A program made the translations under genes and the position numbers. From an uncultured Chromatiales bacterium (GTDB lineage: Bacteria; Bacteroidota; Ignavibacteria; SZUA-365), in contig CAZWNO010000004.1 of NCBI GenBank assembly GCA_964635845.1, positions 821-64,820 of the forward strand: a stretch of DNA of 64,000 bases. Reading direction: 5' to 3'. Under the pieces are notes generated by a model that made no database searches, had not been told where the DNA came from, and saw only the letters and a program-made list of their open reading frames with translations. Below are positions 1 to 29,059 of this stretch, piece by piece. Every line of letters starts with the position of its first letter. The stretch's first letter is position 1.

Positions 1-704
1 GTGGCGCCGATACCGCGGCGCACGCGTCCCGTCGTGCGCATCATCCTGCGCAGGATCTGCGCGACGTCCGCCACCTCGAAAGGCGTGCGCATGTCGGGAC
101 CCGTCACAAGCTCGATCAGCGGCATGCCGAGACGGTCGGTGTTGTAGATGCGGTTGTGTCCGCTGTCGCTGATCTCGCGGCACGAGTCCTCCTCGATGCC
201 GAGCTGTATCATCGAGATCTTCCGGTCGCCGTAGGGAATCGCGCCGTGCACGCCGCAGATCGCCGTGCGCTGGAAGCCCGTCGGAATGCTGCCGTCGAGA
301 TACTGCTTCCGCGCGATATGCACCTCGTCGACCAGCGTCAGGCCGGCGAGCATCGAAATCTCCAGCGCGATGTCGAGCGCCTCGTCGTCGAGCATGAACG
401 GCGGCGTGTCGTCCATCTCGTAGGTGCAGACGGTTTCCCTGTGGACGCGGTAGATGATGTTCTTTTTTGTCTTGAACTCCATCAGCGCGGTGCCGTCGTA
501 CTCGCCGAGTTCGGACAGGGTGGGACGCATGTGCCGGAGGATCTCGGCGTGGTACTCGTGCGAGTAGCGGCCGGCCGGACAGCGGCAGAACAGCTTGCTC
601 TTCGTCAGCAGCTGCTGATGCACTTCGAGACCGGATTTGAATCCGACGGTCGCGTAATCCTCGGACGTCATTTCCTCGAAGGGTTTGAATTCGAAATCGT
701 ACAT
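1..704 (-). CDS. Asp/Glu-tRNA amidotransferase subunit, GatB/GatE family (N-terminal ~234 aa; C-terminus runs off the window start)
   Basis: Reverse-strand translation from ATG 704..702 reads MYDFEF..GFKSGLEVHQQLLTKSKLFCRC..DDTPPF..IELVTGPDMRTPFEVADVAQILRRMMRTTGRVRRGIGA. The HQQL and R/KRGIG motifs look more like archaeal-type GatE than GatB. The listed + ORF 156..818 is its antisense shadow. Confidence 0.6.
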   Translation of the reverse strand, partial: MYDFEFKPFEEMTSEDYATVGFKSGLEVHQQLLTKSKLFCRCPAGRYSHEYHAEILRHMRPTLSELGEYDGTALMEFKTKKNIIYRVHRETVCTYEMDDTPPFMLDDEALDIALEISMLAGLTLVDEVHIARKQYLDGSIPTGFQRTAICGVHGAIPYGDRKISMIQLGIEEDSCREISDSGHNRIYNTDRLGMPLIELVTGPDMRTPFEVADVAQILRRMMRTTGRVRRGIGA

Positions 705-816
705 GGGGGTTGTCGGGATGAATGTCGAAAAAAGGTATGTCCTGACAAAATTAAGACAATGGGGTGCGGGAAACAAACAGCCGTCCTGGCGGATTCGCCG
801 CATGACGGATCGGGAT

Positions 817-868
817 GATGGAACGATGGAACGATGGAATGATGGAACGATGGAAGGATGGAAAGATG
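817..868. repeat. Tandem repeat, 8-bp unit gatggaaN, about 6.5 copies, upstream of the pirin gene
   Basis: Direct reading. Confidence 0.85.
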
Positions 869-970
869 TTTTTATGTGTGCTTCCGTTATCTTTCCTTAC
901 AATTTCCCGAGCCAACGCTTTACGTGGCCGCGGACTTTCCCGAATCCGTGCATGTCTGAAAGGAATCCCC

Positions 971-1987
971 ATGAGCGACAGAGATGTCATCAATCTTGCC
1001 CCCCTCGGCTTCCAGTGGCCGACACTCGATCCGTTTCTCTTCTGCGTGCATCATGCGGACCGCTATCCGAAGGCGAATGCGGAAATGGGACCCGCCGCGT
1101 CGCTGGCCGGCCGCGACATGGGACAGGATTTCACACCGAAGGATGGGTGGCGCATGTACCACGGCCTGCGCGTGCCGGGCTTTCCCGCGCATCCGCATCG
1201 CGGTTTCGAGACCGTGACCGTGGTGCTCGAGGGGTTCGTCGACCATTCGGACTCGCATGGCGCGGCGGGACGCTACGGCGAAGGAGATGTGCAGTGGATG
1301 ACCGCCGGGAGCGGACTCCAGCATGCGGAGATGTTCCCGCTGCTGAAAGAGGATGCGGATAATCCCCTCGAACTGTTCCAGATCTGGCTCAATCTTCCAA
1401 AGCGGAGCAAGTTCGTCGATCCGCATTACAGGATGCTCTGGTCCGAAGATATTCCCGTCCCCGAAGAGCGCGACGCGCAGGGGAGGGCGGCGCGCGTGCG
1501 CGTCATCGCCGGACGGTTCGGCGGTGTCGAAGCGCCGCCGCCCGCGCCCGACTCCTGGGCCGTCGATGAGGCGAACGCCGTCGCGATCTGGATCATCAGC
1601 CTCGATGCCGGCGCGGAGTGGACGCTGCCCGCCTCGTCCCCGGCGCTGCGCCGCATGCTCTACTTTTTCGAGGGAGAGGATCTGCAGGTCGCCGATACCG
1701 GCCTGCCGCGATATCATGCCGCGGAGGTCGCGGCTGACCGCGAAATACCTCTGCGCAACGGCTCGACTCCGTCGCGCATCCTGCTCCTACAGGGACGTCC
1801 CATCGACGAATCCGTCGCGCAATATGGTCCGTTCGTCATGAACACGCAGGGTGAAATAAGGGATGCATTCGTCGATTTCCAGAAAACACAGTTCGGCGGA
1901 TGGCCGTGGGACCGTCCCGATCCGGTTCATCCGCCCGCGAGCGGACGTTTTGCCCGCTATGCGGACGGCAGCGAGGAACACAGATAA
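971..1987 (+). CDS. Pirin family cupin protein
   Basis: HPHRGFETVTVVLEGFVDHSDSHG and the two-cupin layout are typical of pirin. The longer ORF from 815 starts inside an 8-bp tandem repeat, so the start at 971 is preferred. Confidence 0.75.
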   Translation: MSDRDVINLAPLGFQWPTLDPFLFCVHHADRYPKANAEMGPAASLAGRDMGQDFTPKDGWRMYHGLRVPGFPAHPHRGFETVTVVLEGFVDHSDSHGAAGRYGEGDVQWMTAGSGLQHAEMFPLLKEDADNPLELFQIWLNLPKRSKFVDPHYRMLWSEDIPVPEERDAQGRAARVRVIAGRFGGVEAPPPAPDSWAVDEANAVAIWIISLDAGAEWTLPASSPALRRMLYFFEGEDLQVADTGLPRYHAAEVAADREIPLRNGSTPSRILLLQGRPIDESVAQYGPFVMNTQGEIRDAFVDFQKTQFGGWPWDRPDPVHPPASGRFARYADGSEEHR

Positions 1988-1992
1988 ACAGG

Positions 1993-4509
1993 ATGCATGG
2001 CGGAGCCATGCCACGTCGCGGGCACCCGGAATACCGTATGACAGGATCGAAACACATCACGGTGAAAGAACTGGAATTCCCGAAGGGGAAGAGACGGTCG
2101 CTCATCGGCATCGTGTGCGTCGTGCTGTGCGTCATCATCGCCGCGACATACTATTACTACCTGAAGGAGAAGCAGGGACTGCTGCAGCAGGCCTCGAATG
2201 AACTCATGTCGGTGACGAGGCTGAAATCCTCCCAGCTGTCGGGTTGGTACGCGGATGAATTGCACGATATCGAGCTGTTGGCGTCGAACGAAATCGTCCT
2301 GTCGCTGTTCGAGCGGTGGAGAGCGAGCGGTGCATCGTCGGATCGCAACGCGCTGACGCATCTGCTCCGCGCACTCGGCGATGAACACGGATACACGGAT
2401 CTCTTTCTCTGTACGAGCGAGGGCTACCGCTATTACGCGGATTCCGATTCCATCCAATCCTGCAATCCGGCGCTCCTCGCGCTCGTGCCGGTCGCGCTGC
2501 GGACAACGGGGGCGGTCTCGACAGACATATACATCTGCCCGCATCACGGAGACTACCATCTCGACTTCCTGGCATCGCTGGAGATGCGAAAGCGCGACGC
2601 CGGTGTCGTGCTCGTCGGGCGTTTCGATCCGGTCCGGACGGTGTTTCCGGTCGTGGAAGAATGGCCGACGGCCAGCCCTTCGACGGAAACGCTCATCGTA
2701 CGGCGCGAGGGAGATTCGCTCCGGATCCTCAGCAATCTGCGTCACCGGTCCATCGCCCCGCTGCGCAAGACCGTCTCGATCAACGATACGGCGACGGCGA
2801 TCGTCCAGGCGGTGAACGGCCGCTTTGGATTGCGCGAGGCCGTGGACTACCGCGGCGTGAAAGTGATCGCCTACATCAGTCCGATCCCGCGGACGCCGTG
2901 GATCATGGTGTCGAAAATCGATCGCACCGAAGTGTTCGATGCTCTCTATTTCGAGATGAGTCTGATCCTGGCCCTGATGCTCGCCTGTGTCCTCGCCGTC
3001 GTCGGAGGCATGTCCTACTTCTTCAGCCAGAGGCAGAGCGATATGTATCGCGCAATGTTCGAGGAACACGGCGCGGTGAAACTGCTTCTGGATCCCGGGA
3101 CGGGAGACATCGTCGACGCGAACCATGCGGCAGCGGTCTTCTACGGGTGGAGCAGGGAAGAACTGCGGCGTATGCGCGTCCAGGACATCAACCTCCTCCC
3201 GCCTGCACGGGTTGCCGGGATACTGCGTCAGACCATCGACGAGGAACGCCTGCACAACGAATTCCGTCATCGGCGCGCCGATGGATCCGTGCGCGACGTG
3301 GAAGTCTTCGCCGGAGCGCTGCGCATCCGGGGAATGGATCTGATCTATGCGATCATTCACGATGTGACCGAGAAGAAGGAAGGAGAACGCTCGATCAAAC
3401 TGCTCGGTCGCTCCGTCGAGCAGAGCCCCGTGGCGATCATGATAACCAATCCCGAAGGCGTGATCGAATACGTGAATCCCGAGTTCACGAAGGTGACCGG
3501 CTATGCCTCCGAGGAAGCCGTCGGCCGCAGGCCGAATATTCTCAACTCGGGGTACCACCCGCGCGAGTTCTACGCGGAGTTGTGGGGGACGATCATCGCG
3601 GGCGGGGAATGGATCGGGGAATTCTGCAATAAAAGGAAGGATGGAACGCTGTTCTGGGAACGCGCCGTCATCGCCCCGGTTCTCGACGACGACGGCGTCA
3701 TCACGCATGTGATCGGTATCAAGACCGACATCACGGCGGAGAAGCAGCTCCTGTCCGAACTCGTCACCGCGAAGGAGCGGGCGGAGGAGAGCGACAGGCT
3801 CAAATCCGCGTTCCTCGCCAACATGAGTCACGAGATCCGCACGCCGATGAACACCATCGTCGGATTCGCGGACTTTCTCATCGATCCCGATCTGTCGCCC
3901 GAGGACAGGAGTGAATTCACCGCGATCATCCGCCAGCGGTCCTACGATCTCCTGACGATCATCAATGACATTCTCGACATCTCGCGCATCGAAGCCGGCG
4001 TGGTGAAGATCGTCGAGGAGGACTGCGACATCGACGGACTCCTGCAGGAACTGTATGTTTCCTTCCAGCATCTGTCGAACGGCGATGGCAGGCCTCGGGT
4101 CCGCCTGCTTTGCCACAGCGAACTGAACGCGGGGGAGAACCGCTGTGTCGTCGATGCATCCCGCCTGCGTCAGGTCATGACCAATCTTCTCTCGAATGCG
4201 TTCAAGTTCACGCATGAGGGAACGATCACCTTCGGCTGCCGCGCATGGAACAACGCGGAGTTGCTGTTCTATGTCGAGGACACCGGAATCGGCATCGAAC
4301 CGGATGCCTGCGCGTTCATCTTCGACCGTTTCCGGCAGGCCGACGATTCCCCGACGCGGCGCTACGGCGGGACGGGTCTTGGCCTCGCGATCTCGCAGGG
4401 CATCGTGACCCTGCTGGGCGGAAAGATCTGGGTGGAATCCGAAGCCGGCAGCGGCAGCACATTTCAATTCACCATCCCGAGAAAAACGCCGCCGGTCGGC
4501 ACGAATTGA
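1993..4509 (+). CDS. Membrane sensor histidine kinase with an extracytoplasmic sensor domain, two PAS domains, HisKA and HATPase_c
   Basis: A TM segment IGIVCVVLCVIIAATYYYYL is followed by PAS-like blocks, an H-box SHEIRTPMN, and G-boxes DTGIGI and GGTGLGL. The start is ambiguous among ATGs at 1993, 2011 and 2038. Confidence 0.8.
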   Translation: MHGGAMPRRGHPEYRMTGSKHITVKELEFPKGKRRSLIGIVCVVLCVIIAATYYYYLKEKQGLLQQASNELMSVTRLKSSQLSGWYADELHDIELLASNEIVLSLFERWRASGASSDRNALTHLLRALGDEHGYTDLFLCTSEGYRYYADSDSIQSCNPALLALVPVALRTTGAVSTDIYICPHHGDYHLDFLASLEMRKRDAGVVLVGRFDPVRTVFPVVEEWPTASPSTETLIVRREGDSLRILSNLRHRSIAPLRKTVSINDTATAIVQAVNGRFGLREAVDYRGVKVIAYISPIPRTPWIMVSKIDRTEVFDALYFEMSLILALMLACVLAVVGGMSYFFSQRQSDMYRAMFEEHGAVKLLLDPGTGDIVDANHAAAVFYGWSREELRRMRVQDINLLPPARVAGILRQTIDEERLHNEFRHRRADGSVRDVEVFAGALRIRGMDLIYAIIHDVTEKKEGERSIKLLGRSVEQSPVAIMITNPEGVIEYVNPEFTKVTGYASEEAVGRRPNILNSGYHPREFYAELWGTIIAGGEWIGEFCNKRKDGTLFWERAVIAPVLDDDGVITHVIGIKTDITAEKQLLSELVTAKERAEESDRLKSAFLANMSHEIRTPMNTIVGFADFLIDPDLSPEDRSEFTAIIRQRSYDLLTIINDILDISRIEAGVVKIVEEDCDIDGLLQELYVSFQHLSNGDGRPRVRLLCHSELNAGENRCVVDASRLRQVMTNLLSNAFKFTHEGTITFGCRAWNNAELLFYVEDTGIGIEPDACAFIFDRFRQADDSPTRRYGGTGLGLAISQGIVTLLGGKIWVESEAGSGSTFQFTIPRKTPPVGTN

Positions 4510-4540
4510 AAAAGGCGCCCCTCGCGGGACGCCCTTCTCA
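4510..4540 (-). terminator. Rho-independent terminator for the minus-strand gene at 4563..5873
   Basis: Imperfect GC hairpin ggcgcccctcgcgggacgcc. On the minus strand it is followed by a T-run (aaaaa on the plus strand). Confidence 0.45.
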
Positions 4541-4562
4541 CGGGAGAGCAGACAGCCGGCCC

Positions 4563-5873
4563 TTACTTCATCAGCATCATTTTCTTCGTCGCCATGCCCA
4601 GCGCGGATTCAAGGCGATAGAAATAGATTCCGGAAGGGAAATCTCCGGCGTCGAATGTCACCGCATGCGTCCCGGCCGCGGCAGTGCCTTCAGCGAGTAC
4701 ACGGACCTCGCGTCCGAGATGATCGAGGACGCTCAGACGCAATTCGGTCTCTTCCATCAGGCTGTAACGGATCTCGGTCGAGGGATTGAAGGGATTGGGG
4801 AAATTCTGCTCCAGTGTGAAACCGCTCGGCACCGATGGAGCGAATGCAATTTTGGGCGCGGCGCCGCAGGAACCGCTCACCAGGTATCCCGCCGCGACGC
4901 CGTCGTCGACGGACAGCTGTTCGATGCTGTGCCGCACGGCGATCTTGCATGCCACCGTCGTGCTGTTGCCGGAGGCATCCTCGGCGCGGATGAACACGGT
5001 GTAGACGCGTCCGTTCGCTTCGCCCTGACGCTCGCTGCGCAGCTGGACGGACTGGCAATCCGGAGCGATGACGATGTCATCCCAGGTGTCGCCGTCACCG
5101 AGATCGACCGCGTTCTCGACTTCGTCGCTCCCTGCCGATCTGATGAACACCGTGGGTGCATTGTCACAATCGTCACTCAGCGATGCGATCATCTGTGAAA
5201 GCGTAAAGGTGTGGTAGATGTGATTCGGCGTCCACATCTCGAGTCCGCTGACGGTCGTGATCACCGGGGCGGTCTCGTCAATTTTCATGAATGAAATATC
5301 GTCCATCCCGAAATCATTCCCGCCAGGTGCGAGATTCAGATCGACGATCTCGATCGTCGCCGTGGCGTTCGCTCCGGAATTCCACACGCCGGTGTACTGC
5401 GCCCAGTTGAACGTCGTGGCGGGTGCGAAATAGTTGGCGCCGACCTGCACGCCGTTCACGCGGAAGCTCAGCACCGCGCGATTGATCGCTCCGCAATGAG
5501 AATTGACCCAGGCCGACAGACGGTAGTTGGTCCCGGCGAGAACGGGAACCGTCTGCGACCACAGGACGCGATTCACCGCGACCGAGCCGTTCACCACCAT
5601 GAGCTTCCCCGCACCGCTCGTGTGATCCACGCCGCCGTAGCAATAATGGGAGACCGTCGGCGTGCTGGTGACGTCGTAGGTCCCTTCGTTCAGGATATCG
5701 TTGGGCGAATAAAAGTACTGGGAGAGGAATGCACTGTTTCCCTGTTCGAAATCGCCGTTCGTGACAAGTTCGCCGCACTGGCCGAAGGCGGGACGGGCGA
5801 GGACCAGCAGCGCCGCGGCCGCGACGAGCGCTGCCGGAATGCGGATGTGAAGACCGTTCTGTATCTGTATCAT
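4563..5873 (-). CDS. Secreted protein with a CBM4/9-like (NGDFE jelly-roll) domain and a T9SS (Por) C-terminal sorting domain
   Basis: Signal peptide MIQIQNGLHIRIPAALVAAAALLVLARPAFGQ. QCGELVTNGDFEQG motif. C-terminal FPNPFNPSTEIRYSL..GIYFYRLE..KKMMLMK has the T9SS tail pattern. Confidence 0.7.
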   Translation of the reverse strand: MIQIQNGLHIRIPAALVAAAALLVLARPAFGQCGELVTNGDFEQGNSAFLSQYFYSPNDILNEGTYDVTSTPTVSHYCYGGVDHTSGAGKLMVVNGSVAVNRVLWSQTVPVLAGTNYRLSAWVNSHCGAINRAVLSFRVNGVQVGANYFAPATTFNWAQYTGVWNSGANATATIEIVDLNLAPGGNDFGMDDISFMKIDETAPVITTVSGLEMWTPNHIYHTFTLSQMIASLSDDCDNAPTVFIRSAGSDEVENAVDLGDGDTWDDIVIAPDCQSVQLRSERQGEANGRVYTVFIRAEDASGNSTTVACKIAVRHSIEQLSVDDGVAAGYLVSGSCGAAPKIAFAPSVPSGFTLEQNFPNPFNPSTEIRYSLMEETELRLSVLDHLGREVRVLAEGTAAAGTHAVTFDAGDFPSGIYFYRLESALGMATKKMMLMK

Positions 5874-6078
5874 ACGGGGCTCCGTTGATGGGAGTATGGT
5901 TGCTCTCGTCCCGGGTATCGGGGGAAAGCCTGTTGTCGTGTGAAGGGACGGTGGATAATATACGACACGTTATATCCGAATACAACATATCCGACGGTCA
6001 GCCGCGCGTGGACGCGGCGCGCGACCGTTCCGCCTAAGCTCCGCTTTGCGGAGCGAAGGCGGATGGCTATCTTTCCGC

Positions 6079-6807
6079 ATGATTGAAATACGGAACCTGC
6101 GAAAATCCTTCAACGGCAACGACGTCCTGCGCGGTGTGGACCTGACGATTCCCACCGGCGAGACCATCGCCGTCATCGGTCAGAGCGGCTGCGGGAAGAG
6201 CGTACTGCTCAAGCATATCATCGGACTGCTCACGCCGGACGAGGGGGAGATTCTCGTCGACGGACAGAATGTGCACAGGCTGCCGTCGAAAGAACTGTAT
6301 CTCCTGCGGGGCCGCTTCGGTTTTCTGTTCCAGGGCGCGGCGCTCTTCGATTCGATGACCGTGCTCGAGAACGTGTCGCTGGGACTCGTCGAGAATTCCC
6401 CGATGACGGAAAAAGAGATCCGCGGCATCGTCGCGGAGAAGCTCGCCCTTGTCGGCCTGCCCGGGATCGAGGACAAGAAGCCGGCCGAGCTTTCCGGCGG
6501 CATGCGCAAGCGTGTCGGCCTTGCGCGCGCGCTCGCGACGAATCCCGATTACATCCTCTACGACGAACCGACGACAGGGCTCGACCCCGTCATGTCCAAC
6601 CAGATCGACGCACTCATCGCCGAAATCACGGGCAAGCTCAGCGCCACCTCGATCGTCGTCACCCACGACATGTTCAGCGTCTACAACATCGTCGACCGCG
6701 TGGCGCTGATGCACGAGGGACGCATCTATTTTTCCGGGACGCCTGCGGAGTTCCAGTCTGCGGATGACCCGGTGATTCGCGATTTTATTGAGCGGTTTGG
6801 AAAATAG
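6079..6807 (+). CDS. ABC transporter ATP-binding protein, MlaF/Ttg2A-like (copy 1)
   Basis: Walker A GQSGCGKS, signature LSGGMRKRVGLARA, Walker B ILYDEPTTGLD, H-loop VTHDM. Identical to copy 2 except for the last ~25 codons. Confidence 0.85.
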   Translation: MIEIRNLRKSFNGNDVLRGVDLTIPTGETIAVIGQSGCGKSVLLKHIIGLLTPDEGEILVDGQNVHRLPSKELYLLRGRFGFLFQGAALFDSMTVLENVSLGLVENSPMTEKEIRGIVAEKLALVGLPGIEDKKPAELSGGMRKRVGLARALATNPDYILYDEPTTGLDPVMSNQIDALIAEITGKLSATSIVVTHDMFSVYNIVDRVALMHEGRIYFSGTPAEFQSADDPVIRDFIERFGK

Positions 6808-6809
6808 GC

Positions 6810-7025
6810 TGTAGGCTTTAAGCTGTAAGCGGAAGGCAAGAAGGCAGAAGTGTAGCTTCGTTATGCCGATTGGACGCCCTGGGAGCGGCGCGCACCAGCG
6901 CGCGGTAGCCAGGTACCGCGGTGTTGATGGTGAAGGCTGGACGCAGAAGTGTCGCTTCGTCATGCCGAGTGGTCGCCCTGAGTCCGCCTGAGGCGGACGA
7001 AGGGTGACCGTATCGAGGCACGGCA
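6810..7025. repeat. Cluster of degenerate intergenic repeats (GTCATGCCG family plus an inverted copy of the 29.1 kb hexamer repeat)
   Basis: gaagtgtagcttcgttatgccgattggacgccctg and gaagtgtcgcttcgtcatgccgagtggtcgccctg are two related copies. gaccgtatcgaggcacggcag at 7005..7025 matches the 3' half of the 40-bp repeat at 10724 and 12099. Confidence 0.6.
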
Positions 7026-7083
7026 GAACTTGAGATTCCCCACGCACTCTCATCACTTCCGGCGAGTCCCGCTACCGTATCCG

Positions 7084-9672
7084 CTACCGCGCCACGGGAA
7101 GGCGCAGCAGCGACTGTCCTTCCGGGGTGATCAGCAGGACGATGTAAAGACCCGATGGCACGGGGGGAATCGTGATCGCGAGTTGATGGACTCCGGAGTC
7201 CATTGTCCCGAATTCAGTCCTGCCGAGTTCCCGACCGAGCATGTCGAACAGGACTGCGCGCAGCGGCATGCGGTGTGCGAGTTCGACGGCCAATGTCGCC
7301 GATGTCGCTGCGGGAACGGGATACACCGCATGGATGCGCAGCGCCGTCGGGAGCGGAGCGGCAGACACGATGCCGGTCGGCAGTTTTCCCGATCCGTACA
7401 GGTAAATCTTCAATTCCGGATGCATCGGGTCGTTTGTCGCGAAGAGCAGGTAGGTATGGAAATATCCGGTGGATCGCGGAGAAAACCGGATCCAGAGGGG
7501 CTGCGGTTCGAATGGTTTGATCTCCTTTGGGAACGGTTCCTCGATCGCGAAGTGCACGCTGTCCGCGCCGTCGAAGCGCGGCGATCCGAGCCGCATGATT
7601 GTCCCGCCCGCATTGATGGGAAAGTACCCCCGCACCTGGGAGTCCCCGACGGCGACCGCGTCGAACGGCAGTGATCCGTATGCCGGCTGGAGCACCGGCC
7701 ACGGCGGCCAGCCGACGGACGCGCGCAATGCGGTGCGTGTTGGCGTAACGCTGACGGCATCATGGTCGATCAGCATCGTGGCGGAAAGACCTGCCGTGCT
7801 TGAAAACACGCATCGCAAGGTGAGTGAATCCATCCCGTGCGCCGGAAGCTCGGCGGCCGGTGCGCGAAGAAGCTGGAACAGCTCCGCATCGGGTCCTTCG
7901 ATTGTCACGGACCGGATGCGCAGCGGCGCGGCGTTCGGATTCTCTATCAGGAGTGTCGTATCCGATATTATTTCCGCACCGATGTATCCGAAATCCACGA
8001 GCCCGGGAATCCGCGGCGGCAGATCTTCATCCGCCGGCGCGGTGAAGCAGCGCACGCTCACTTCGCGGATGTACCCTGACGGCGGTGCGGTCGACTCGAT
8101 GAGCAGCCGTCCGAATTGCGTCCCCGCCTGTTGTCCGCCCTGTTCCAGAAGGAGCACGGCATTGCTCCGCGCGGGGATCAGCCGGGGGATCGGGGGAACG
8201 ATGCGCAGCACATCGGTGTCGAAATCGGGGAGTTCGATCGAGTGAATATCCAGCGGTCTCCCGCCGGTGTTGCGCAGCACGACCGCATGCGTTGTCGGAG
8301 TTCCCTCCCGCGTGTCGCACATGACCGCATCCTGCACGCTCAGTTCAGGCTGCAGCTGGCGGGTGTTCCGGATCGCGCCCGAGGCGATGATCGCATGCAG
8401 GCAGCCGTCTGTGAATACCGCATTCGTCAGCCGCGCATCGCAGCTGTCGTTCAGGCTGAGGTTCCACGCGTCGAAGAGGAGCAGCCCGACAGTATCGGTT
8501 GTCAGAAATGCGGGCGCGAGACTCGTCCACTGGAGTGAGGTCTGTCCGGGGATGAAAGTCATCGGCGCGTCCGGGCGAAGCGCCGCGGACGAGGTAGTGT
8601 CCAGACCGATGAAGCGGATGGTGCCGTTCCCGAACTCGATCGAGCAGGTGAACGGGGGCAGCGAATCCCGCGGGAAGGCGCGGTCGGTCAGCAGCGGCAG
8701 GCGCGCCCGCCCGTCCTCGCCGACCTCCGCCACGCCGAGCGCGAAGCGCACCGGGGTGAGCTGCGTCGAATCGTAGCGGGACCGATAGGTCCTCGCCACG
8801 GAAAGGGTGTCGTTGCAGACATCGGAGAACAGCAGCCGTGATGTCCGCAGCAAGCCCCTGGGACATGGTTCCGGCATCGCGTACACGGCGGAACACTCGT
8901 TGAACCGCTCCGTCGCGAGGCGGAGCGCTTCCTCCATGATCGAGGTCAGCTGAGTGGGATAAATGGTCTGGAAGTATTTTCCGCCCGTGAGCATGGCGAG
9001 CATTTCCATATCCGAATTCGGAGTGGAACTCCCCAGCGAGATGGCGACGATGCGGATGTGTTCCTTCTGTGCGAGCGCGATGATCTCGGCGACGGTTCTC
9101 GAGGAACTTCCATCCATTCCGTCTGTGAGGCACACGAGCGTGCGGGCGTTGCCGGACGCCGAGCTGGCGATCTCGATCAGCGCCGTGTAGATGCCGTCGT
9201 AGAGGGACGTGAAGCCGCTCGGTTCCAAGGCATCGACGGCGGCGTGCAGCTTCGCGGCTTCGTTCGTCAGCTTCTGGGCCACCGTCACGTCGGTCGAGAA
9301 CCAGACCACCGCCGCCTCGTCCGTCGTCCATACCATCCGATCGATGAGCGCATGCATCGCCTCCCGCAGACCCCGTATCCCGTAGCCGGTCATGCTGCCG
9401 CTGTGGTCGAGCGCGAAGCCCATCGTGACCGGGTAACGCAGTCCGGGCTCGGGACAGAACAGGTCGAACCGCGCGACATCGACGGAATCGTTTTCGATGA
9501 TGCGAAGCCGGTCTTTCGTAACTCCGACGATGCTGCCGTCACAGGCGAGTGACCAGTAATATTCCACGTCCGGGTGGAGGTACGCGATGCGCGCCGATCG
9601 CAACTCGGGCTGCGCGGCCGCCGGATAGGCGAGGATGGTCAAAAGGATGAAGGTAAAAAGCCGCGCGATCAT
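7084..9672 (-). CDS. Large secreted von Willebrand factor A (vWA, MIDAS DxSxS) domain protein with a T9SS C-terminal sorting domain
   Basis: Signal peptide MIARLFTFILLTILAYPAAAQ (the ORF could extend to 9735). MIDAS motif FALDHSGSM. C-terminal GLYIVLLITPEGQSLLRLPVAR has the T9SS tail pattern. Confidence 0.7.
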   Translation of the reverse strand: MIARLFTFILLTILAYPAAAQPELRSARIAYLHPDVEYYWSLACDGSIVGVTKDRLRIIENDSVDVARFDLFCPEPGLRYPVTMGFALDHSGSMTGYGIRGLREAMHALIDRMVWTTDEAAVVWFSTDVTVAQKLTNEAAKLHAAVDALEPSGFTSLYDGIYTALIEIASSASGNARTLVCLTDGMDGSSSRTVAEIIALAQKEHIRIVAISLGSSTPNSDMEMLAMLTGGKYFQTIYPTQLTSIMEEALRLATERFNECSAVYAMPEPCPRGLLRTSRLLFSDVCNDTLSVARTYRSRYDSTQLTPVRFALGVAEVGEDGRARLPLLTDRAFPRDSLPPFTCSIEFGNGTIRFIGLDTTSSAALRPDAPMTFIPGQTSLQWTSLAPAFLTTDTVGLLLFDAWNLSLNDSCDARLTNAVFTDGCLHAIIASGAIRNTRQLQPELSVQDAVMCDTREGTPTTHAVVLRNTGGRPLDIHSIELPDFDTDVLRIVPPIPRLIPARSNAVLLLEQGGQQAGTQFGRLLIESTAPPSGYIREVSVRCFTAPADEDLPPRIPGLVDFGYIGAEIISDTTLLIENPNAAPLRIRSVTIEGPDAELFQLLRAPAAELPAHGMDSLTLRCVFSSTAGLSATMLIDHDAVSVTPTRTALRASVGWPPWPVLQPAYGSLPFDAVAVGDSQVRGYFPINAGGTIMRLGSPRFDGADSVHFAIEEPFPKEIKPFEPQPLWIRFSPRSTGYFHTYLLFATNDPMHPELKIYLYGSGKLPTGIVSAAPLPTALRIHAVYPVPAATSATLAVELAHRMPLRAVLFDMLGRELGRTEFGTMDSGVHQLAITIPPVPSGLYIVLLITPEGQSLLRLPVAR

Positions 9673-9900
9673 GACATTCGAATCGGATGCCAGGTGCTGC
9701 ATGTTCCGCAAGCGGGGACAATCCTGTTTTTTCACGGTGGAGTCTCTGGAGAGTGACGGTAAAGGATCAAACTCTCCGGATTAACCCGAATGACGAGGGA
9801 AAGTTACATTCGAGACGGCATGCAGGCGGGGCCTCCGTGCCGGGAGTGCGTCCGCCCGGGTTCCGCTTTGCGGAGCGAAGGCGGATGGCTATCTTTCCGC

Positions 9901-10629
9901 ATGATTGAAATACGGAACCTGCGAAAATCCTTCAACGGCAACGACGTCCTGCGCGGTGTGGACCTGACGATTCCCACCGGCGAGACCATCGCCGTCATCG
10001 GTCAGAGCGGCTGCGGGAAGAGCGTACTGCTCAAGCATATCATCGGACTGCTCACGCCGGACGAGGGGGAGATTCTCGTCGACGGACAGAATGTGCACAG
10101 GCTGCCGTCGAAAGAACTGTATCTCCTGCGGGGCCGCTTCGGTTTTCTGTTCCAGGGCGCGGCGCTCTTCGATTCGATGACCGTGCTCGAGAACGTGTCG
10201 CTGGGACTCGTCGAGAATTCCCCGATGACGGAAAAAGAGATCCGCGGCATCGTCGCGGAGAAGCTCGCCCTTGTCGGCCTGCCCGGGATCGAGGACAAGA
10301 AGCCGGCCGAGCTTTCCGGCGGCATGCGCAAGCGTGTCGGCCTTGCGCGCGCGCTCGCGACGAATCCCGATTACATCCTCTACGACGAACCGACGACAGG
10401 GCTCGACCCCGTCATGTCCAACCAGATCGACGCACTCATCGCCGAAATCACGGGCAAGCTCAGCGCCACCTCGATCGTCGTCACCCACGACATGTTCAGC
10501 GTCTACAACATCGTCGACCGCGTGGCGCTGATGCACGAGGGACGCATCTATTATTCCGGTACGCCCGCCGAATTCCAGTCCGCCGACGATCCGGTGATCC
10601 GCGATTTCATCGCGCGGTTCGGAAAATAG
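9901..10629 (+). CDS. ABC transporter ATP-binding protein, MlaF/Ttg2A-like (copy 2)
   Basis: Nucleotide-identical to copy 1 from about 9864 to about 10548. It then diverges almost only at synonymous sites, with F to Y and E to A replacements. Confidence 0.85.
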   Translation: MIEIRNLRKSFNGNDVLRGVDLTIPTGETIAVIGQSGCGKSVLLKHIIGLLTPDEGEILVDGQNVHRLPSKELYLLRGRFGFLFQGAALFDSMTVLENVSLGLVENSPMTEKEIRGIVAEKLALVGLPGIEDKKPAELSGGMRKRVGLARALATNPDYILYDEPTTGLDPVMSNQIDALIAEITGKLSATSIVVTHDMFSVYNIVDRVALMHEGRIYYSGTPAEFQSADDPVIRDFIARFGK

Positions 10630-10722
10630 GCGATAGGCGATAGGCGGTTGGCGGCAGGCAGTGGGCAGCAGGCGGCAGGCAGTGGGCAGCAGGCGGCAGG
10701 CAGTGGGCAGCAGGCGGCAGGC
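10628..10722. repeat. Tandem repeat, 21-bp unit ggcagcaggcggcaggcagtg, about 3.5 copies, preceded by gcgatagg x2
   Basis: Direct reading of the sequence. Confidence 0.8.
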
Positions 10723-10723
10723 C

Positions 10724-10763
10724 GTCATGCCGGGCAGGTCGCGAAGCGACCGTATCGAGGCAC
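10724..10763. repeat. 40-bp repeat gtcatgccgggcaggtcgcgaagcgaccgtatcgaggcac (copy a), abutting the ATG of the next gene
   Basis: Identical copy at 12099..12138 and a partial copy at 7005..7025. Contains a small hairpin gtcgc-gaa-gcgac. Confidence 0.8.
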
Positions 10764-12050
10764 ATGAAACAAGGTACCATTGAAATGAAGAAAATACAGA
10801 TAGATAATTCGAATTTCGAACTCTTCGACATGCCGACACGCGAAGATACGAAGGATGGAAACGGAAGTCCCGCTCGCGGCAGCCACAGCCTGGTCATTCA
10901 TCCCCGGTCCGGCAGCGTGCTGTCGAAGGAGGAAAAACAGTTCAACCGCCTCACCAGGGAGATCGCGGATCTCCAGCGACGGATCGGGGAGAGGACGGTC
11001 GAACTGGACAAAATACTCGACCTCTACCATGCGCGGTTGTATCCGCTGCGGAAGGAGGGCGCGGAACTGGATATCGAATTCGCCCGCCTCATCGCCACTG
11101 CGGCGCGGACGATGCGCTTCGGGAAGAACCAGGTGGAACGCGTCCGATACTTCATCCGGGATCTGTTCGAGAACGCGTTCGTCCTCGTCGAGCCCGATCC
11201 CGATACAATCGCCCTGTACGACGCGTGGGCGGAGGTCCTCGACGAGGAGGAGAAGAAGGAAACCCTCAATGCAATGAAAATCAGCATCGAGGAGTATGCG
11301 AGAGAAATGTTCGGTATGGACCTCGACATTTCGGAGAAGGAGCTTTCGGAACTCGACGGGAGTCCCGAATCCTACGCCCGCTTCCTGAGCCGTCTCATCG
11401 AACAGATGAGCGGGAAATCCTGGGAGGATATGCCTCCGGAACGCCCGCGCCGGAAAACGGCGAAACAGCTCGCCGCGGAAGAACGGAAACGAACGGAAGC
11501 CCTGGCAGAGGCGCGTAACACCCGCGCGATCTATCTTTCGCTCGCCAAGGCGCTGCATCCCGACCTCGCTGTCGACAACGACGATCGCACGCGGCGCGAG
11601 CAGCTCATGCGGCAGGTGACCGCGGCGTACCAGGCAGGCGATATGACGGCGCTGCTCCGACTCGAAATGGAATGGGTCGCCCGGGAAGACGGCGGACTGC
11701 ACCGCATGCCCGAGGAAACACTGCGCTCCATGATCTCCGCGCTCAAGACGCAGGCGGCCGTGCTTCGTGACGAACTACGCGGACTCCCGTACCATCCCCG
11801 TTACGAGCTGCTCGAACGATACGCGGAGATGTCCACCCAGAGAGCGATAAACGCGATCGAACGCGATATGCGAGCATACGATGATCAGATCGACAACAAT
11901 CGCGCGCTGCTGGAATCGATCGGACCGAAACCGACGAAGAAGACGATCATGGAACTGGTGGACGCCGCGGAAGAAGCGGCATCCCAGGACTATTTCTTCG
12001 AGGACATCATCCGGGAGTATGCATCAGGCTTGAAGAAGCGTCACCGGTGA
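10764..12050 (+). CDS. Hypothetical coiled-coil protein with an internal J-domain-like segment (HPD motif)
   Basis: RAIYLSLAKALHPDLAVDNDDRTRREQLMRQVTAAYQAGD resembles J-domain helices II-III with the HPD tripeptide. GC3 supports this frame over the antisense ORF 10725..11702. Confidence 0.45.
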   Translation: MKQGTIEMKKIQIDNSNFELFDMPTREDTKDGNGSPARGSHSLVIHPRSGSVLSKEEKQFNRLTREIADLQRRIGERTVELDKILDLYHARLYPLRKEGAELDIEFARLIATAARTMRFGKNQVERVRYFIRDLFENAFVLVEPDPDTIALYDAWAEVLDEEEKKETLNAMKISIEEYAREMFGMDLDISEKELSELDGSPESYARFLSRLIEQMSGKSWEDMPPERPRRKTAKQLAAEERKRTEALAEARNTRAIYLSLAKALHPDLAVDNDDRTRREQLMRQVTAAYQAGDMTALLRLEMEWVAREDGGLHRMPEETLRSMISALKTQAAVLRDELRGLPYHPRYELLERYAEMSTQRAINAIERDMRAYDDQIDNNRALLESIGPKPTKKTIMELVDAAEEAASQDYFFEDIIREYASGLKKRHR

Positions 12051-12098
12051 CCAGCGATGCATGGCCGTTTCTCGAAGCGGCGCATGGACAGGCAGACC

Positions 12099-12152
12099 GT
12101 CATGCCGGGCAGGTCGCGAAGCGACCGTATCGAGGCACGGTCCCTCGATACG
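12099..12152. repeat. 40-bp repeat copy b, extended by an inverted repeat cgtatcgagg/cctcgatacg that forms a hairpin
   Basis: Identical to 10724..10763. It lies just after the stop of the J-domain gene and is a direct repeat with copy a. Confidence 0.8.
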
Positions 12153-12316
12153 CCGTCCGCCTGCGGCGTCCGGCTACTCGGGATGACAGAAGGAAAATGG
12201 AGATTGTCCAATACAGTTGTATATTTGTCTAATGTCCGAGGAGTGGGAAGTGCTGAGTGCCCAGGCTCGGACATTGGAGGCGACGATCGCGAGAACGCTG
12301 CGGAGGTTTTTCAGGC

Positions 12317-12730
12317 GTGAAAACGGAACTCATTCAGACATTGACCGCGACCTTCGAGGGACACGCCCAACTCACAGAGAACGGTGTGGAATACTGGCTG
12401 GCACGGGATCTTCAGCATCTGCTGGGATATGCAGAGTGGCGGAATTTTCACAACACGGCGATTTCCAAGGCAAGAACGGCCTGTGAGGTCTCCGGGCATT
12501 CGGCATCGGATCATTTTGTTGACGTCAACAAAACGATACAGATGCCGAAAGGTGCGGAAAAGGAACATGTCGCGAACAACGAGGTCGTGCGCAACACTTT
12601 GCTGGAACGCGGCATCCATCCAGAATCGCTCCCCGCTGACGAGGATGTGAAAAAAGTCGAACGGCGGCTTGCTTCCGAAGAAAAGAAATCGCTGAAGAAT
12701 CCGGAAGCTCTGCGAACAGAGGATGCATGA
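12317..12730 (+). CDS. dinD: DNA-damage-inducible protein D-like (DinD / Bro-N domain), short form
   Basis: EYWLARDLQHLLGYAEWRNFHNTAISKARTACEVSGHSASDHFVDVNKTI closely parallels E. coli DinD (WRNFQKV..ATQACEASGHAASDHFVE). A GTG start at 12317 has a GGAGG RBS 9 nt upstream. The ORF as listed begins at 12257. Confidence 0.6.
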   Translation: MKTELIQTLTATFEGHAQLTENGVEYWLARDLQHLLGYAEWRNFHNTAISKARTACEVSGHSASDHFVDVNKTIQMPKGAEKEHVANNEVVRNTLLERGIHPESLPADEDVKKVERRLASEEKKSLKNPEALRTEDA

Positions 12731-16898: not shown

Positions 16899-16934
16899 CG
16901 TACCGGCTGCGAACTCAACACGTGAGGCATCGGC

Positions 16935-17015
16935 GTGAGGGAAAATGTGATTGAGGGAATATTCTCCGCACTGGACGCCGTCAAGCCCACTGGGCTGGGG
17001 ATGGCGGGGTAACTC
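16935..17015. repeat. ~80-bp dispersed repeat, copy A (agggaaaatgtgattgagggaatattc..gacgccgtcaagccc..tgggctggggatggcggggt)
   Basis: About 90% identical to 19575..19655. Both copies lie just after a + strand gene. Confidence 0.75.
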
Positions 17016-17273: not shown

Positions 17274-18428
17274 ATGAAAATGAAGCGGTATCCGGCTGGA
17301 CCGGTCGCTCTCTTCGCGATCGCGGCGATGGTTGCCCTCGTGGCATGCTCGAATTCCAGCGAGCCCCCGCTCCCGCCCGATCCCGGAATCGTCGACACCA
17401 CGACGCATGACTACAGTTGGGAGTACCATTTCATCGATGCCCCGCGGGGTGAAATCAATTTCCTGCGCGACATCCAGATCGTGGACGAGGACGATATCTG
17501 GTTTGTCGGGGAGATCTATACCGACACGCTGAATTACAGTATCCCGCATCGCAAAACCATCAGATTCCTTAACACAATCCATTGGAATGGAGCAACTCTT
17601 TCAGGTTATTCGTATGAATCGATCGTAGCAAGCGGGGAGGTGGAGAGGGCTAATTTCTATGCCTTGGCCAATCGGCGACGCACAAAGTATTTAATCTCGG
17701 GTCTTGGCATTACCGAATTGAACGACGATACGATTGTGTTTCACGACATGCGGATTTTGAATGGGAAGTGGTACGGATTTGAAATGGCGAGTACCGAAGC
17801 CAGTGGGAAGATGTTCATTTACGGACTCCCCGGATTCCTGGCAGAACTGGTGCAGGCGGGGCCGCTCCAACCTATCGGGATTCGGCAGATTCCGCTCCCC
17901 ACTCAAGCTCCGGTGCGTGCATTCGTCGAAGTAAACGAGCAGGAATACTTCATCGGCGTGTATTCCGACGAGACGGGGGAACATCACTGGTATCACTCCA
18001 AGGATGGAATGCTGCTCGAGTATTCGTTCTCCGCGGTCGGCGTTTACAGCCGCGATTATTGTACTGCGCTGTGGGCGAGCGATGACAAGTTGTTCGCGAC
18101 CAGTACGCCCTTCCTGTTCGTCCAGTCGCTCGCGGATACATCGGACAGGGTGTTCGTCAATTTTCTGGACGATCTCGGACGGTCATCGGTAGGACGCATC
18201 GAGAAGATGACGGGGCGCGCGAACAATGACATTTTTTTCGTCGGCCAAGTGTCGACGGTAATGCATTACAACGGAAAGACTTTCCACGTTTATGACGAAA
18301 TAGCCGAAAGGGCATCGATGAGCCGTTTCTGGGATGTCACAATCGCAGGTGACAAGGTGTACATCGTCGGTGTCCGGGAATTTGGAGGACAATATCAAGC
18401 TGTACTTATAATCGGTACGAAACAATAG
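17274..18428 (+). CDS. Hypothetical lipoprotein
   Basis: Signal peptide and lipobox AMVALVAC|SNS. No recognisable catalytic motif. Confidence 0.55.
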   Translation: MKMKRYPAGPVALFAIAAMVALVACSNSSEPPLPPDPGIVDTTTHDYSWEYHFIDAPRGEINFLRDIQIVDEDDIWFVGEIYTDTLNYSIPHRKTIRFLNTIHWNGATLSGYSYESIVASGEVERANFYALANRRRTKYLISGLGITELNDDTIVFHDMRILNGKWYGFEMASTEASGKMFIYGLPGFLAELVQAGPLQPIGIRQIPLPTQAPVRAFVEVNEQEYFIGVYSDETGEHHWYHSKDGMLLEYSFSAVGVYSRDYCTALWASDDKLFATSTPFLFVQSLADTSDRVFVNFLDDLGRSSVGRIEKMTGRANNDIFFVGQVSTVMHYNGKTFHVYDEIAERASMSRFWDVTIAGDKVYIVGVREFGGQYQAVLIIGTKQ

Positions 18429-18440: not shown

Positions 18441-19508
18441 TTGAGCCCTAGAACGAACGTCATATTGCTTGCGGCATTGGTACTGATACTCCCGACGGCC
18501 TGCGAGGACGAGCACGGACTCGCTCCACCTGACGCTCCTTGCGCTTCGTGCGATACCTGCAACAACCTGAAACTGCCGCCCACAGGTCCTTGGTACCAGG
18601 ATGGCGAAATCGTTCCCGCCGTGCAGGACACGTATCGGGGGAAAATGTCGCCGGACGGAAGGTATCTCGCGTTTCTCGGGGGCAATTCGGATTACAGGAA
18701 CGACGAAAGGACCTATCCGATCAGCGGACTGGTGGTGCAGGATGTGGCTACGAAGCGCGTGCTGCACTTCTTTCTGGGATTTTACAGCTGGTTTTCCTGG
18801 CATCCCGATGCGAAGCATCTGTATTATGTAGAGAGTTCGATACTTCGCAGATTGAATGTACAAACAGGCGAAAACGTTCGCTACGACAGCCTTGGGCATT
18901 GGGAAGGGGTGGAGGTGACTGGTTCCGGTAGGTTCATCTATTTATCAGGCTATAGAGACGGAAATGCCAGGAATGGTATCTGGCGATGCAAGGAAGACGG
19001 ATCCGAAATTTTCTTCGTAACGGATGATGCAGTGTTCAAATGGAACTACGTGACGGCCGATGATTCGCTGCTGTGCGCATTGAATCTCGGAAAAACTGCT
19101 CATCCCGAAGGCGTATACTTTCTGAACGTCTTGACCGGATCCATGCGGTTCATAGGGATTCCCTCTCTCCATGAACAATTTTACGCATCAAGTCACCGGG
19201 GATTGTTATCGAGAGATGGAAAGTTGATCCTGTTCCAACCATATGTGGAGGACAAGAAACTCAACGACGGATATGCCGATGCGGGAGTCTGGCTACTCGA
19301 TCTCGAAAGCCTGCGTTTGCGGCAGGTGTTGCCGAAGCACCTCCATTACCGGTTCCGCTTTCGGAATCCACAATGGTGCACGGACCGAACCTTCATCGCC
19401 GATTGGCTGTGTGTGAAGGACTCAACGGTATCCTTGTATGAATACTCGCTGGACGGCCGTCCGCTGAGAAGATTGACGGACAGGAATCTCCGATTCTGGG
19501 AGAAATAA
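18441..19508 (+). CDS. Hypothetical lipoprotein with TolB-like beta-propeller repeats
   Basis: Lipobox LILPTAC. Repeated SPDGRYLAF and DGKLILF blades. Confidence 0.5.
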   Translation: MSPRTNVILLAALVLILPTACEDEHGLAPPDAPCASCDTCNNLKLPPTGPWYQDGEIVPAVQDTYRGKMSPDGRYLAFLGGNSDYRNDERTYPISGLVVQDVATKRVLHFFLGFYSWFSWHPDAKHLYYVESSILRRLNVQTGENVRYDSLGHWEGVEVTGSGRFIYLSGYRDGNARNGIWRCKEDGSEIFFVTDDAVFKWNYVTADDSLLCALNLGKTAHPEGVYFLNVLTGSMRFIGIPSLHEQFYASSHRGLLSRDGKLILFQPYVEDKKLNDGYADAGVWLLDLESLRLRQVLPKHLHYRFRFRNPQWCTDRTFIADWLCVKDSTVSLYEYSLDGRPLRRLTDRNLRFWEK

Positions 19509-19574
19509 TCCGGAAGCGGAAATCAATCTACCAAGTCTCGTGATGAGTCTGTCCGGGGGTCCCGACGAACTCTT

Positions 19575-19655
19575 CGCCGGCAGGGAAAATGTGATTGAGG
19601 GAATATTCATCGCGCTCGACGCCGTCAAGCCCCATGGGCTGGGGATGGCGGGGTG
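19575..19655. repeat. ~80-bp dispersed repeat, copy B
   Basis: See copy A at 16935..17015. Confidence 0.75.
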
Positions 19656-22012: not shown

Positions 22013-22542
22013 GCCATCTGGAGTCAGGAACAAGGACTTTCCGCACCTTCACACTGTTGCCGAAGAAGTGATGGATCGGGTGGTGATTACTTTCGGTGAC
22101 GGTCTGGTCCGGGGCCAGGGAGCGGCCGAATGACCCCAAGGTAGAGCGTGAGATTATTGCCATGAGCCGGAGCCCGGGAAAGACGACCACAGGGATAATC
22201 CCGGCTGCGGCACATAATGGATTCCGTTTGTCGCAATTAGAACAGATGCGAATCATAAAAAGATAAAATTATTTATTTAAAGGTAAACAGCAGGGAAACG
22301 ATACGCATCGCCGTATGTATGTCCATGGAATTGCACGACTTAGAGAGCAAGAATGTCCGGGTGGGCGAGAACACTTTATCAGACGAACAAGTAGGGAATT
22401 GATTTCAGGTATTGACAAAGTCTGGGCAGGCTGATTATCATTACACCAATAAGATCCGTAACACCCCTTCTCGGAGGACAGGTCGAGTGCCCGGAGAATC
22501 CCCCGGAAACAGACTGAGCTTTTGCGGTTCACCGTACGCCTG

Positions 22543-22730
22543 AACCGTCGAGCCGCGAGAACCGTCGAGCCGTGAGAACTGTCGAGCCGCGAGAACTGTC
22601 GAGGCATGAGAACCGTCGAGCTGCGAGAACTGTCGAGCCGCGAGAACTGTCGAGGCATAAGAACCGTCGAGCTGCGAGAACTGTCGAGCCGCGAGAACTG
22701 TCGAGCCGCGAGAACTGTCGAGCCGCGTGA
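22543..22730. repeat. Tandem repeat, 17-bp unit gagaacYgtcgagcYgc, about 11 copies, in the 5' leader of the gene at 22754
   Basis: Direct reading. Unit length is not a multiple of 3. The ORFs 22269..22802, 22441..22782 and 22529..22786 are repeat artefacts. Confidence 0.85.
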
Positions 22731-27757: not shown

Positions 27758-28155
27758 GCGCTCATAGCTCTGACATGATGTGTTGAATTGAGCGTCGTCG
27801 ATTTAGGATGTAATATCGATGCAGTTTTGCTGCAAAATAGCGATTAACACGCAAAATATCGATCAGAGCCTTGCCGCGCCCCTCTCTGTCAGGATAGTTG
27901 ACCTTGCGCTGTGAAGTCAGAACTACATCAGTAGCGACGTCAAGTTGCACCTGTGATAAGGTTGGGCCCCTTGATATCGCCGATCAAACAGAGGTATTAA
28001 ACAGGTCTTAGCTGCATCTTTCAAGAGCAGGTGTGTTGAGCGTCAGGAGAAAAGTCGGAAGGCGTATTCGGTCAGGTACGAACGGTTAAGACGAACGTAA
28101 GTCAACCATCGAAGAAGTATCGAGAGCAGCATTCGCCGTCGAAACCGGGATTTAG

Positions 28156-28900: not shown

Positions 28901-29059
28901 TATCAGCAATGGTCGAAGGCGGTCGGAAGTCGAGACATGCCGGCGTATCGAGCCACATTCCGTGCCTTTCACAGCCCTTCGATACGGTCGCCGAGGCGAC
29001 CTATTCGGGCAGACGCACTGCTGCCAACAGCCCGCTACGTCGGGTCTGCGACAAACGGC

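Follow-up and report, generated by a model that had tools for sequence, protein, structure and literature searches.

We report two old copies of an ABC (ATP-binding cassette) ATPase gene that are identical to each other over 691 nt and then diverge abruptly 77 nt before their stop codons. They lie on either side of a gene for a vWA-domain protein in a 64,000-nt stretch of DNA (hereafter the window) from an uncultured Ignavibacteria-like bacterium, the window being part of a metagenome-assembled NCBI contig of 82,481 nt. The history that we consider probable begins with an old duplication, continues with purifying selection acting on each copy and ends with a recent gene-conversion tract over the probable core promoter and the first 217 codons. 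A preliminary description of this DNA had proposed recent conversion or recombination between paralogues, and our analyses support that proposal: the copies are identical to each other yet differ by 10% from the ATPase of their closest relative (locus L001), their tails have diverged further than orthologues have, and a relic found in that relative shows the second copy to be old. The features concerned are the following.

6079..6807, + strand: ABC ATPase copy 1, 242 aa, ending ...IYFSGTPAEFQSADDPVIRDFIERFGK (PF00005, E=2e-35; public-collection protein P0002)
9901..10629, + strand: ABC ATPase copy 2, 242 aa, ending ...IYYSGTPAEFQSADDPVIRDFIARFGK (PF00005), divergent from the vWA gene as in L001
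6040..6730, + strand: tract R, copy 1, made up of a leader (probable core promoter) and codons 1-217 (exact 691-nt match)
9862..10552, + strand: tract R, copy 2 (exact 691-nt match to copy 1)
6731..6807, + strand: diverged tail 1, 25 codons plus stop, with rare T-ending codons (14/77 mismatches to tail 2)
10553..10629, + strand: diverged tail 2, with host-typical codons and the replacements Y and A (comparison with tail 1)
6029..6039, + strand: left edge of the duplicated segment, diverged (7/11 identical to 9851..9861)
6808..7021, + strand: downstream region D1, with 7-nt repeats, a half element and a hairpin at 6959..7021 that is REP-like, i.e. resembles repetitive extragenic palindromes (sequence comparison and folding)
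10630..10763, + strand: downstream region D2, with a 7/21-nt tandem repeat at 10642..10722 and a REP-like 40-mer at 10724..10763
7084..9735, - strand: vWA-domain protein gene between the ATPase copies (PF00092, E=1e-13; open reading frame, ORF, of 883 aa)

An identical tract with diverged tails

Compared base by base at an offset of 3822, window positions 6040..6730 and 9862..10552 match exactly (691 nt, 0 mismatches); this 100% identity is read from assemblies of short-read type, which pop small bubbles, so that a few real single-nucleotide differences between the copies are possible. The preliminary description had recognised the identical tract, while its limits (6040..6728 and 9864..10548) and offset (3824) were a few bases off. 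Tract R contains 39 nt upstream of the ATG (at 6079 and 9901, start codons of the 242-aa proteins, MIEIRNL..., that were set from the ORFs and the start sites of homologues) together with 217 codons. From its right edge at 6731 and 10553 to the stop codons at 6807 and 10629 there are 14 mismatches in 77 nt, as against none in the 691 nt of the tract (Fisher test, p=3e-15). Twelve of these 14 differences are synonymous changes at third positions and the other two are replacements (TTT/TAT, F/Y, and GAG/GCG, E/A), just as had been described for a tail differing mostly at silent sites.

Self-BLAST of the whole window recovers recognisable homology between 6029..6838 and 9851..10660, and no third copy of the ATPase was found in this search. 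Diverged homology continues beyond tract R, the duplicated segments spanning 6029..7021 and 9851..10763, with their end marked by a common terminal motif, GACCGTATCGAGGCAC, at 7006..7021 and 10748..10763. To the right of the tract this homology comprises the 82%-identical tail and the related regions D1 and D2, and to the left it may extend over 11 nt with 7 matches, which form the same hairpin stem in both copies.

The contrast in codon usage noted earlier, with tail 1 atypical and tail 2 host-like, also holds: among 25-codon windows tail 1 falls at the 3rd percentile of typicality and tail 2 at the 67th, and T-ending codons account for 9/25 of tail 1 compared with 12% across the genes of the window. 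When the tail differences are polarised with L001, L002 and L088 as outgroups, tail 1 is seen to have kept the family-consensus amino acids (F and E), to carry five private C-to-T third-position changes, and to have TCT and two TTT, among its rare codons, in common with L001. Tail 2 carries both amino-acid replacements (Y and A) and its changes are mostly towards C, about half of all tail differences being specific to copy 2. We weighed a foreign source for tail 1 and found no need for one: its codons are partly ancestral (the three rare ones common to L001), the remainder are five C-to-T changes, and its amino acids are those of the consensus. A local likeness of tail 1 to locus L005 (ATT..GAT TTT ATT GAG CGG) was also rejected, as it fails over the whole tail (20/72 differences).

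Over the 651 coding nt of tract R, each copy differs from L001 at 65 positions (10%) and from the other copy at none, and paralogues within this genome are consequently more alike than orthologues between close genomes (0/651 vs 65/651). Synonymous divergence between the window and L001 within R (proportion of synonymous differences, pS, 0.29; synonymous substitutions per site, dS, 0.36) equals, in dS, that of the neighbouring vWA gene. Between tail 1 and tail 2, pS is 0.68, with a ratio of nonsynonymous to synonymous divergence (dN/dS) of about 0.02. Because this tail value exceeds the orthologue value of 0.29, the tails separated no later than the lineages of the window and L001 did, and both evolved as constrained coding sequence throughout. 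The homogenisation of tract R was very recent, a pattern that marks concerted evolution.

Age of the duplication

Relatives with 83-86% protein identity (L002, L088, L085-87) possess a single ATPase each, and share with the window the gene order GatB, Pirin, PAS histidine kinase, (CYTH) ATPase, UvrD, Impact, GT4 and TPR. Their single ATPase lies between the histidine kinase/CYTH gene or Pirin and UvrD, directly before UvrD in L002 and L088 and with an intervening type IX secretion system (T9SS) gene in L085. In the window, the interval from the kinase to UvrD holds a gene for a T9SS-tailed 436-aa protein (minus strand), copy 1, D1, the vWA gene (minus strand), copy 2, D2 and two ORFs of 428 and 157 aa; copy 1 and D1 thus lie between the T9SS 436-aa gene and the vWA gene, and the order from copy 2 to UvrD matches that of L002, L088 and L085. 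In locus L004, the vWA protein of which is 45% identical to that of the window, the order is vWA-like, vWA, T9SS-443 and kinase, with no ATPase between the vWA and T9SS genes. Given that vWA and T9SS genes are adjacent in L004 and that the relatives have a single ATPase, copy 1 and D1 represent the inserted copy.

The closest relative, L001 (ATPase 91% and vWA 79% identical, dS 0.36 for both), carries an intact ATPase from which the vWA gene is divergent, as with copy 2, and a decayed ATPase relic that abuts the 3' end of vWA, which is the position of copy 1, the whole relic-vWA-ATPase arrangement being on one unbranched contig. Retained in this relic, at about 77% identity, are the leader, the initial 57 nt (encoding MIEIRNLRKAFNGKDVLRG) and fragments encoding RFGF and LSGGMRKR. 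Its presence at the copy 1 position indicates that the copy-vWA-copy arrangement had arisen before the lineages of the window and L001 parted, and the duplication is therefore older than the tract on two counts, the relic and the tail pS (0.68 vs 0.29). Comparison with homologous loci had been proposed as a check in the preliminary description, and the relic and the single-copy relatives together support an old duplication with recent homogenisation. Directly upstream of the relic (L001 35-560) lies a multicopper-oxidase pseudogene, of which a signal-peptide piece and a C-terminal copper-site piece survive, 83% identical to an intact gene in L004 that is situated divergently upstream of the vWA cluster; this hints that the ancestral duplicated unit may have been larger than the ATPase, the history of the vWA locus being drawn from L001 and L004 only.

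Assembly evidence

Assembly collapse had been raised as an alternative in the preliminary description, and we examined it using Logan contigs, which are independent per-run assemblies at k=31 in which, by design, no 31-mer occurs twice (PMC12424806). These contigs break at the points predicted for an exact repeat. Contig L003 (SRR8925735, and a second sample too) equals window 6701..9891 at 100%, that is, segment X (6731..9861) with 30 nt of R at each end, while L090 (SRR8925735) and L091 (SRR14117730) equal window 601..6069 and 3823..6069, respectively, also at 100%, and end exactly 30 nt (k-1) inside R. Three of the four junctions are reproduced in this way, the junction from R to D2 (tail 2) being the one found in no independent contig; look-ups for exact matches to both 242-aa ATPases, to protein P0001 and to the 428-aa ORF likewise returned nothing. 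As X is joined to R at both ends and has no other exits, any linear genome that contains the vWA gene has R on both sides of it, and the sole linear path that uses each edge of the graph once is U1-R-X-R-D2 (where U1 is the unique region upstream), as in the window. The repeat is not an obvious invention of assembly, and the collapse alternative is weakened by these data without being eliminated, for reasons of topology that are weighed below. For practical work at the locus, an exact repeat of 691 nt is a potential source of error in binning, read mapping and variant calling.

A probable history and its alternatives

Under the history that we favour, an old duplication would have placed a second unit of leader, ATPase and hairpin region on the far side of the vWA gene, each unit consisting of an Mla/Mce-type ATPase with about 40 nt of upstream leader and a downstream hairpin region, in direct copies. 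Both ATPase copies would then have been kept under purifying selection, until a recent RecA-type non-reciprocal exchange (gene conversion) overwrote one copy with the other over 691 nt. On the left, the tract would end at about the edge of homology, where 11 diverged nt remain, and on the right 77 nt before the stop codon. The two genes would thereby have come to be identical in their probable core promoter and in 217 codons, and their proteins differ at two C-terminal residues. We infer the mechanism of conversion, its direction and the expression of both copies from the sequence. Several observations weigh against this history. The left-flank homology of 11 nt (7 matches) is possibly due to chance (about p=0.015 by rough estimate), and the exact identity of the copies may be slightly overstated through bubble popping in assembly. 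L001 stands at much the same distance from both tails (7 and 8 third-position differences in 25) and so favours neither as the orthologue, and the sequence downstream of the intact ATPase in L001 resembles D1 (85% over 100 nt, at 6876..6976), not D2, a pattern that is simpler if the 3' end of copy 1 is native and that of copy 2 was replaced. Finally, the graph topology is also compatible with an (R-X)n array and with a chromosome U1-R-D2 alongside a circle of R-X, 3.8 kb in length.

We regard as unlikely, though deserving of consideration, the possibility that the 3' end of copy 2 (tail 2 and D2) was replaced through homologous recombination with DNA of a related lineage, with its left crossover at 10552, and that the same event brought in J-domain-like (428-aa) and Bro-N-like genes between ATPase and UvrD; the tract itself would still be recent. 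Consistent with such a replacement are the two extra ORFs between ATPase and UvrD in the window relative to L002, L088 and L085, the 48-nt direct repeat (47/48) that brackets the 428-aa ORF, the weak Bro-N match of the next ORF, the D1-like sequence behind the ATPase of L001, and the occurrence of both amino-acid replacements in tail 2 while tail 1 has the consensus F and E. However, the codons of tail 2 are those typical of the host, its distance from L001 is no greater than that of tail 1, a donor sequence was not found, and the relic in L001 means that two copies existed long ago, so that 0/691 still calls for a homogenising event. On both readings, then, two old copies must have recombined recently, with homogenisation as the result. 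It seems improbable that the arrangement is instead an assembly artefact, in which a single chromosomal ATPase (U1-R-tail 2) coexists with R-tail 1-D1-vWA as a 3.8-kb circle, a co-assembled strain or an array threaded once. The contig is indeed metagenome-assembled, its exact repeat is longer than any short-read k, the junction of R and tail 2 is absent from the independent contigs found, and topology alone does not separate U1-R-X-R-D2 from U1-R-D2 plus a circle. Yet, in an independent assembly, R adjoins X on either side, and X was recorded in two samples; the U1-to-R junction occurs in two runs, the sister locus L001 shows its relic, vWA gene and ATPase on one unbranched contig, and a circle of 3.8 kb with nothing but genes for the ABC ATPase and the secreted vWA protein would have none for replication or mobility. 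A fresh duplication, whether by new copying of the fragment from leader to codon 217 onto an old remnant or by duplication of the whole unit followed by fast mutation of tail 1, we consider very improbable indeed. While the five copy-1-specific C-to-T changes suggest biased mutation in tail 1, 14 changes in 77 nt as against none in 691 nt are impossible under uniform mutation (p about 1e-14), about half of the differences are on the side of copy 2, and copying onto an older remnant is operationally gene conversion.

Comparison with known systems

For the tuf genes of Salmonella it is established that bacterial paralogues undergo gene conversion within the limits of their homology (PMC5485169), and concerted evolution of prokaryotic paralogues has been treated as a general phenomenon (PMC6053082). 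The ATPase copies resemble tufA/tufB (Salmonella/E. coli, RecA-dependent) in that paralogues are closer than orthologues, the tract is homology-bounded and both copies are intact. Unlike them, they are direct repeats 3.8 kb apart around one gene in an uncultured organism, with conversion deduced from comparison of sequences, whereas the tuf copies are far apart, encode an essential and highly expressed protein, and have had their conversion shown experimentally. The finding is that of a known process, gene conversion between bacterial paralogues, in a new genome and on an Mla/Mce-type ATPase. It opens no new biological question. Its value is mostly that of a natural case of concerted evolution, clean and sharply bounded, from an uncultured Ignavibacteria-like lineage, where the relic in a sister lineage places the duplication before a species split and the tract of identity is of very recent date.

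In bacteria generally, duplications that lie between direct repeats are apt to be lost or amplified through RecA. As in such duplications, two long direct repeats here enclose a 3.1-kb segment, and pop-out or amplification by unequal recombination would be expected; unlike in a simple tandem duplication, there is no second vWA gene after the second repeat, and at their 3' ends the repeats show old divergence. We hold out little expectation that the perfect 691-nt repeats act as a recombinational 'accordion' around the vWA gene, although the graph topology in two runs is compatible with mixtures of this kind. Were it so, RecA-mediated pop-out would yield a 3.8-kb circle and one hybrid ATPase, unequal exchange would yield (R-vWA)n arrays, the population would be heterogeneous in the dosage or presence of the secreted vWA protein, and repeated cycles, not one conversion event, would keep the repeats identical.

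Identity of the ATPase

Both copies match PF00005 (ABC_tran) at 122.7 bits against a cutoff of 25, and the motifs GQSGCGKS (Walker A), LSGGMRKR (signature), ILYDEPTTGLD (Walker B) and VTHD (H-loop) are visible in both translations. The gene had been described as MlaF-type, a designation that holds in part. Its best matches among solved structures are to MlaF and MceG, the top four PDB sequence matches (8fed, 7d06, 6z5u, 7ch8) being all of MceG/MlaF type and 6ic4 and 6xbd falling within the top eleven (E=2e-56 for 8fed_G, 1.5e-54 for 7d06_B and 1.4e-48 for 6xbd_I); these are mycobacterial MceG (8fed) and MlaF of Acinetobacter, Pseudomonas and E. coli. Homologues are labelled by JGI (the Joint Genome Institute) as 'phospholipid/cholesterol/gamma-HCH transport system ATP-binding protein' (a K02065-type name). 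However, the NCBIfam MlaF equivalog NF008809 scores 190.9 bits with one copy and 190.3 with the other, far short of its cutoff of 441, and is the second-best NCBIfam model after PhnT2, which likewise scores far below its own cutoff. Moreover, at 242 aa the protein is without the roughly 25-residue C-terminal extension of E. coli MlaF (269 aa), and, unlike the ATPases of MlaFEDB and Mce1, it has no mlaE or mlaD gene within 64 kb. We consequently describe the ATPase as Mla/Mce-like, since neither its equivalog score nor its operon context is that of MlaF, yet MlaF/MceG is the group to which it is most similar.

Homologues with 46-60% identity in Omnitrophota, Chlamydiota, Verrucomicrobiota and Proteobacteria sit between mlaE and mlaD, and in about 30 loci outside Ignavibacteria the gene immediately upstream is mlaE. 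Among the roughly 40 ORFs of the window there is no Pfam match to MlaE (PF02405) or MlaD (PF02470), and six-frame tblastn of the window gave no match at E below 1 when queried with the MlaE and MlaD, verified by Pfam, that flank the homologous ATPase in Omnitrophota locus L047. Within 64 kb the earlier statement that these are orphan ATPases is accordingly borne out, although the trait is clade-wide and not specific to the duplication; the partner genes may be located in another part of the genome. Indeed, tblastn found neither mlaE nor mlaD within 6-10 kb of the ATPase in any Ignavibacteria-like relative fetched; mlaE-ATPase-mlaD operons occur among loci L039-L078, whereas the ATPase is unlinked in the Ignavibacteria/Bacteroidota-like loci L001-L038 and L085-L089. 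The unlinked ATPase is a characteristic of the clade and no consequence of the duplication, and separation of the gene from its permease and MCE partners calls for caution in context-based annotation as 'MlaF'.

Leader and downstream regions

In both copies the leader region can form an outer hairpin stem, in which TCCGCC (6029-6034) pairs with GGCGGA (6058-6063; copy 1 coordinates); the hairpin is not conserved in more distant relatives, and we claim no RNA element. Within tract R, at 6045..6075 (9867-9897 in copy 2), TTTG is followed after a 19-nt spacer by TATCTTTC. The motif CTATnTT...CATGAT directly upstream of the ATPase start is conserved in L001, L002, L088, L005, L007 and L010, in several of which TTTG lies about 19-20 nt upstream of it. 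The arrangement of TTTG and TATCTTTC, which relatives share upstream of the ATG, resembles the -33/-7 promoter of Bacteroidetes and may be a promoter of that type in this phylum. Both ATPase copies probably carry the same promoter, and the conserved upstream motif may represent a promoter that gives a very short or absent leader. Scans for sigma-70 promoters and terminators produced nothing informative at either copy, and the region of the ATPase duplication contains no Rfam family and no tRNA.

Downstream of the ATPase, the hairpin in D1 at 6959..7021 has a predicted folding energy of -50.3 kcal/mol (z=-5.6). An element of the form GTCATGCCG...GACCGTATCGAGGCAC follows each copy (6959..7021 and 10724..10763), behind both of which degenerate repeats had previously been noted, and occurs a third time at 12099..12138. 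A 7-mer family, GGCTGTA/GGCAGCA, is likewise found after both ATPase copies and, inverted, at 29070-29208. The REP-like element was entertained as an integron-like attC site and dropped, as it is a simple imperfect palindrome in which inspection by eye revealed no GTTRRRY-type core.

The vWA gene and neighbouring genes

Two further features adjoin the duplicated segments.

4563..5873, - strand: T9SS-tailed protein of 436 aa (Por_Secre_tail above cutoff)
9775..9808, no strand assigned: intergenic motif CTCCGGATTAACCC..GGAAAGTTACA upstream of vWA, invariant in the window, L001 and L004

The vWA protein, called as 872 aa in the public collection, had been described as a vWA T9SS protein. Its vWA domain is confirmed, while in its C-terminus (last 110 aa) the Por_Secre_tail domain (PF18962/TIGR04183) is detected weakly and below cutoff (E=0.0089, 16.7 bits vs 27); paralogues in L004 and P0126 carry this domain. 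Protein and alignment searches with the vWA protein found no relatives in genome or metagenome contig collections. The motif CTCCGGATTAACCC..GGAAAGTTACA lies at 3257-3290 in L001 and at about 1788-1832 in L004, where it is invariant though the L004 vWA protein is only 45% identical, and it is a probable promoter region of the vWA gene; it had no exact match in metagenome contigs. The reverse complement of this motif contains TAACTTTC, which is similar to the -7 box of Bacteroidetes.

Beyond copy 2, the 48-nt direct repeat of the REP-like element (10716-10763 and 12091-12138) brackets the 428-aa ORF at 10764..12050, which has an HPD motif and a weak DnaJ match (E=0.011). The next ORF, of 157 aa at 12257..12730, has a weak Bro-N match (E=3e-4). 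Both ORFs are absent from relatives, in which the ATPase adjoins UvrD (in L085 a T9SS gene is followed by UvrD), and the region looks like a cassette-type insertion.

Other repeats and insertions in the window

Short tandem repeats are unusually numerous in the window, with periods of 7-26 nt and 2-17 copies (815-868, 10642-10722, 22542-22727, 29070-29208, 31862-31935, 34702-34776, 38410-38542, 39769-39935, 49105-49178 and 52602-52693). Judged by eye, they appear to lie between called ORFs, often just past gene ends. Two fragments of ISL3-type transposase genes (24946-25357 and 28498-28908, an 89% identical direct repeat) bracket a BNR/T9SS-tailed gene at 25652..27757 that is low in GC, with a third-position GC content (GC3) of 0.35. 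Beside the second of these fragments, at 27958-28077, is a group II intron D1-D4 fragment (RF01999, 54.5 bits). A further direct repeat of 81 nt (89%), at 16930-17010 and 19574-19654, brackets ORFs 17274..18428 and 18441..19508, which have no Pfam match and lie in a stretch of lower GC. This stretch separates UvrD from the Impact-family gene; L002 and L088 have these two genes side by side, with a single 528-aa ORF intervening in L085-87.

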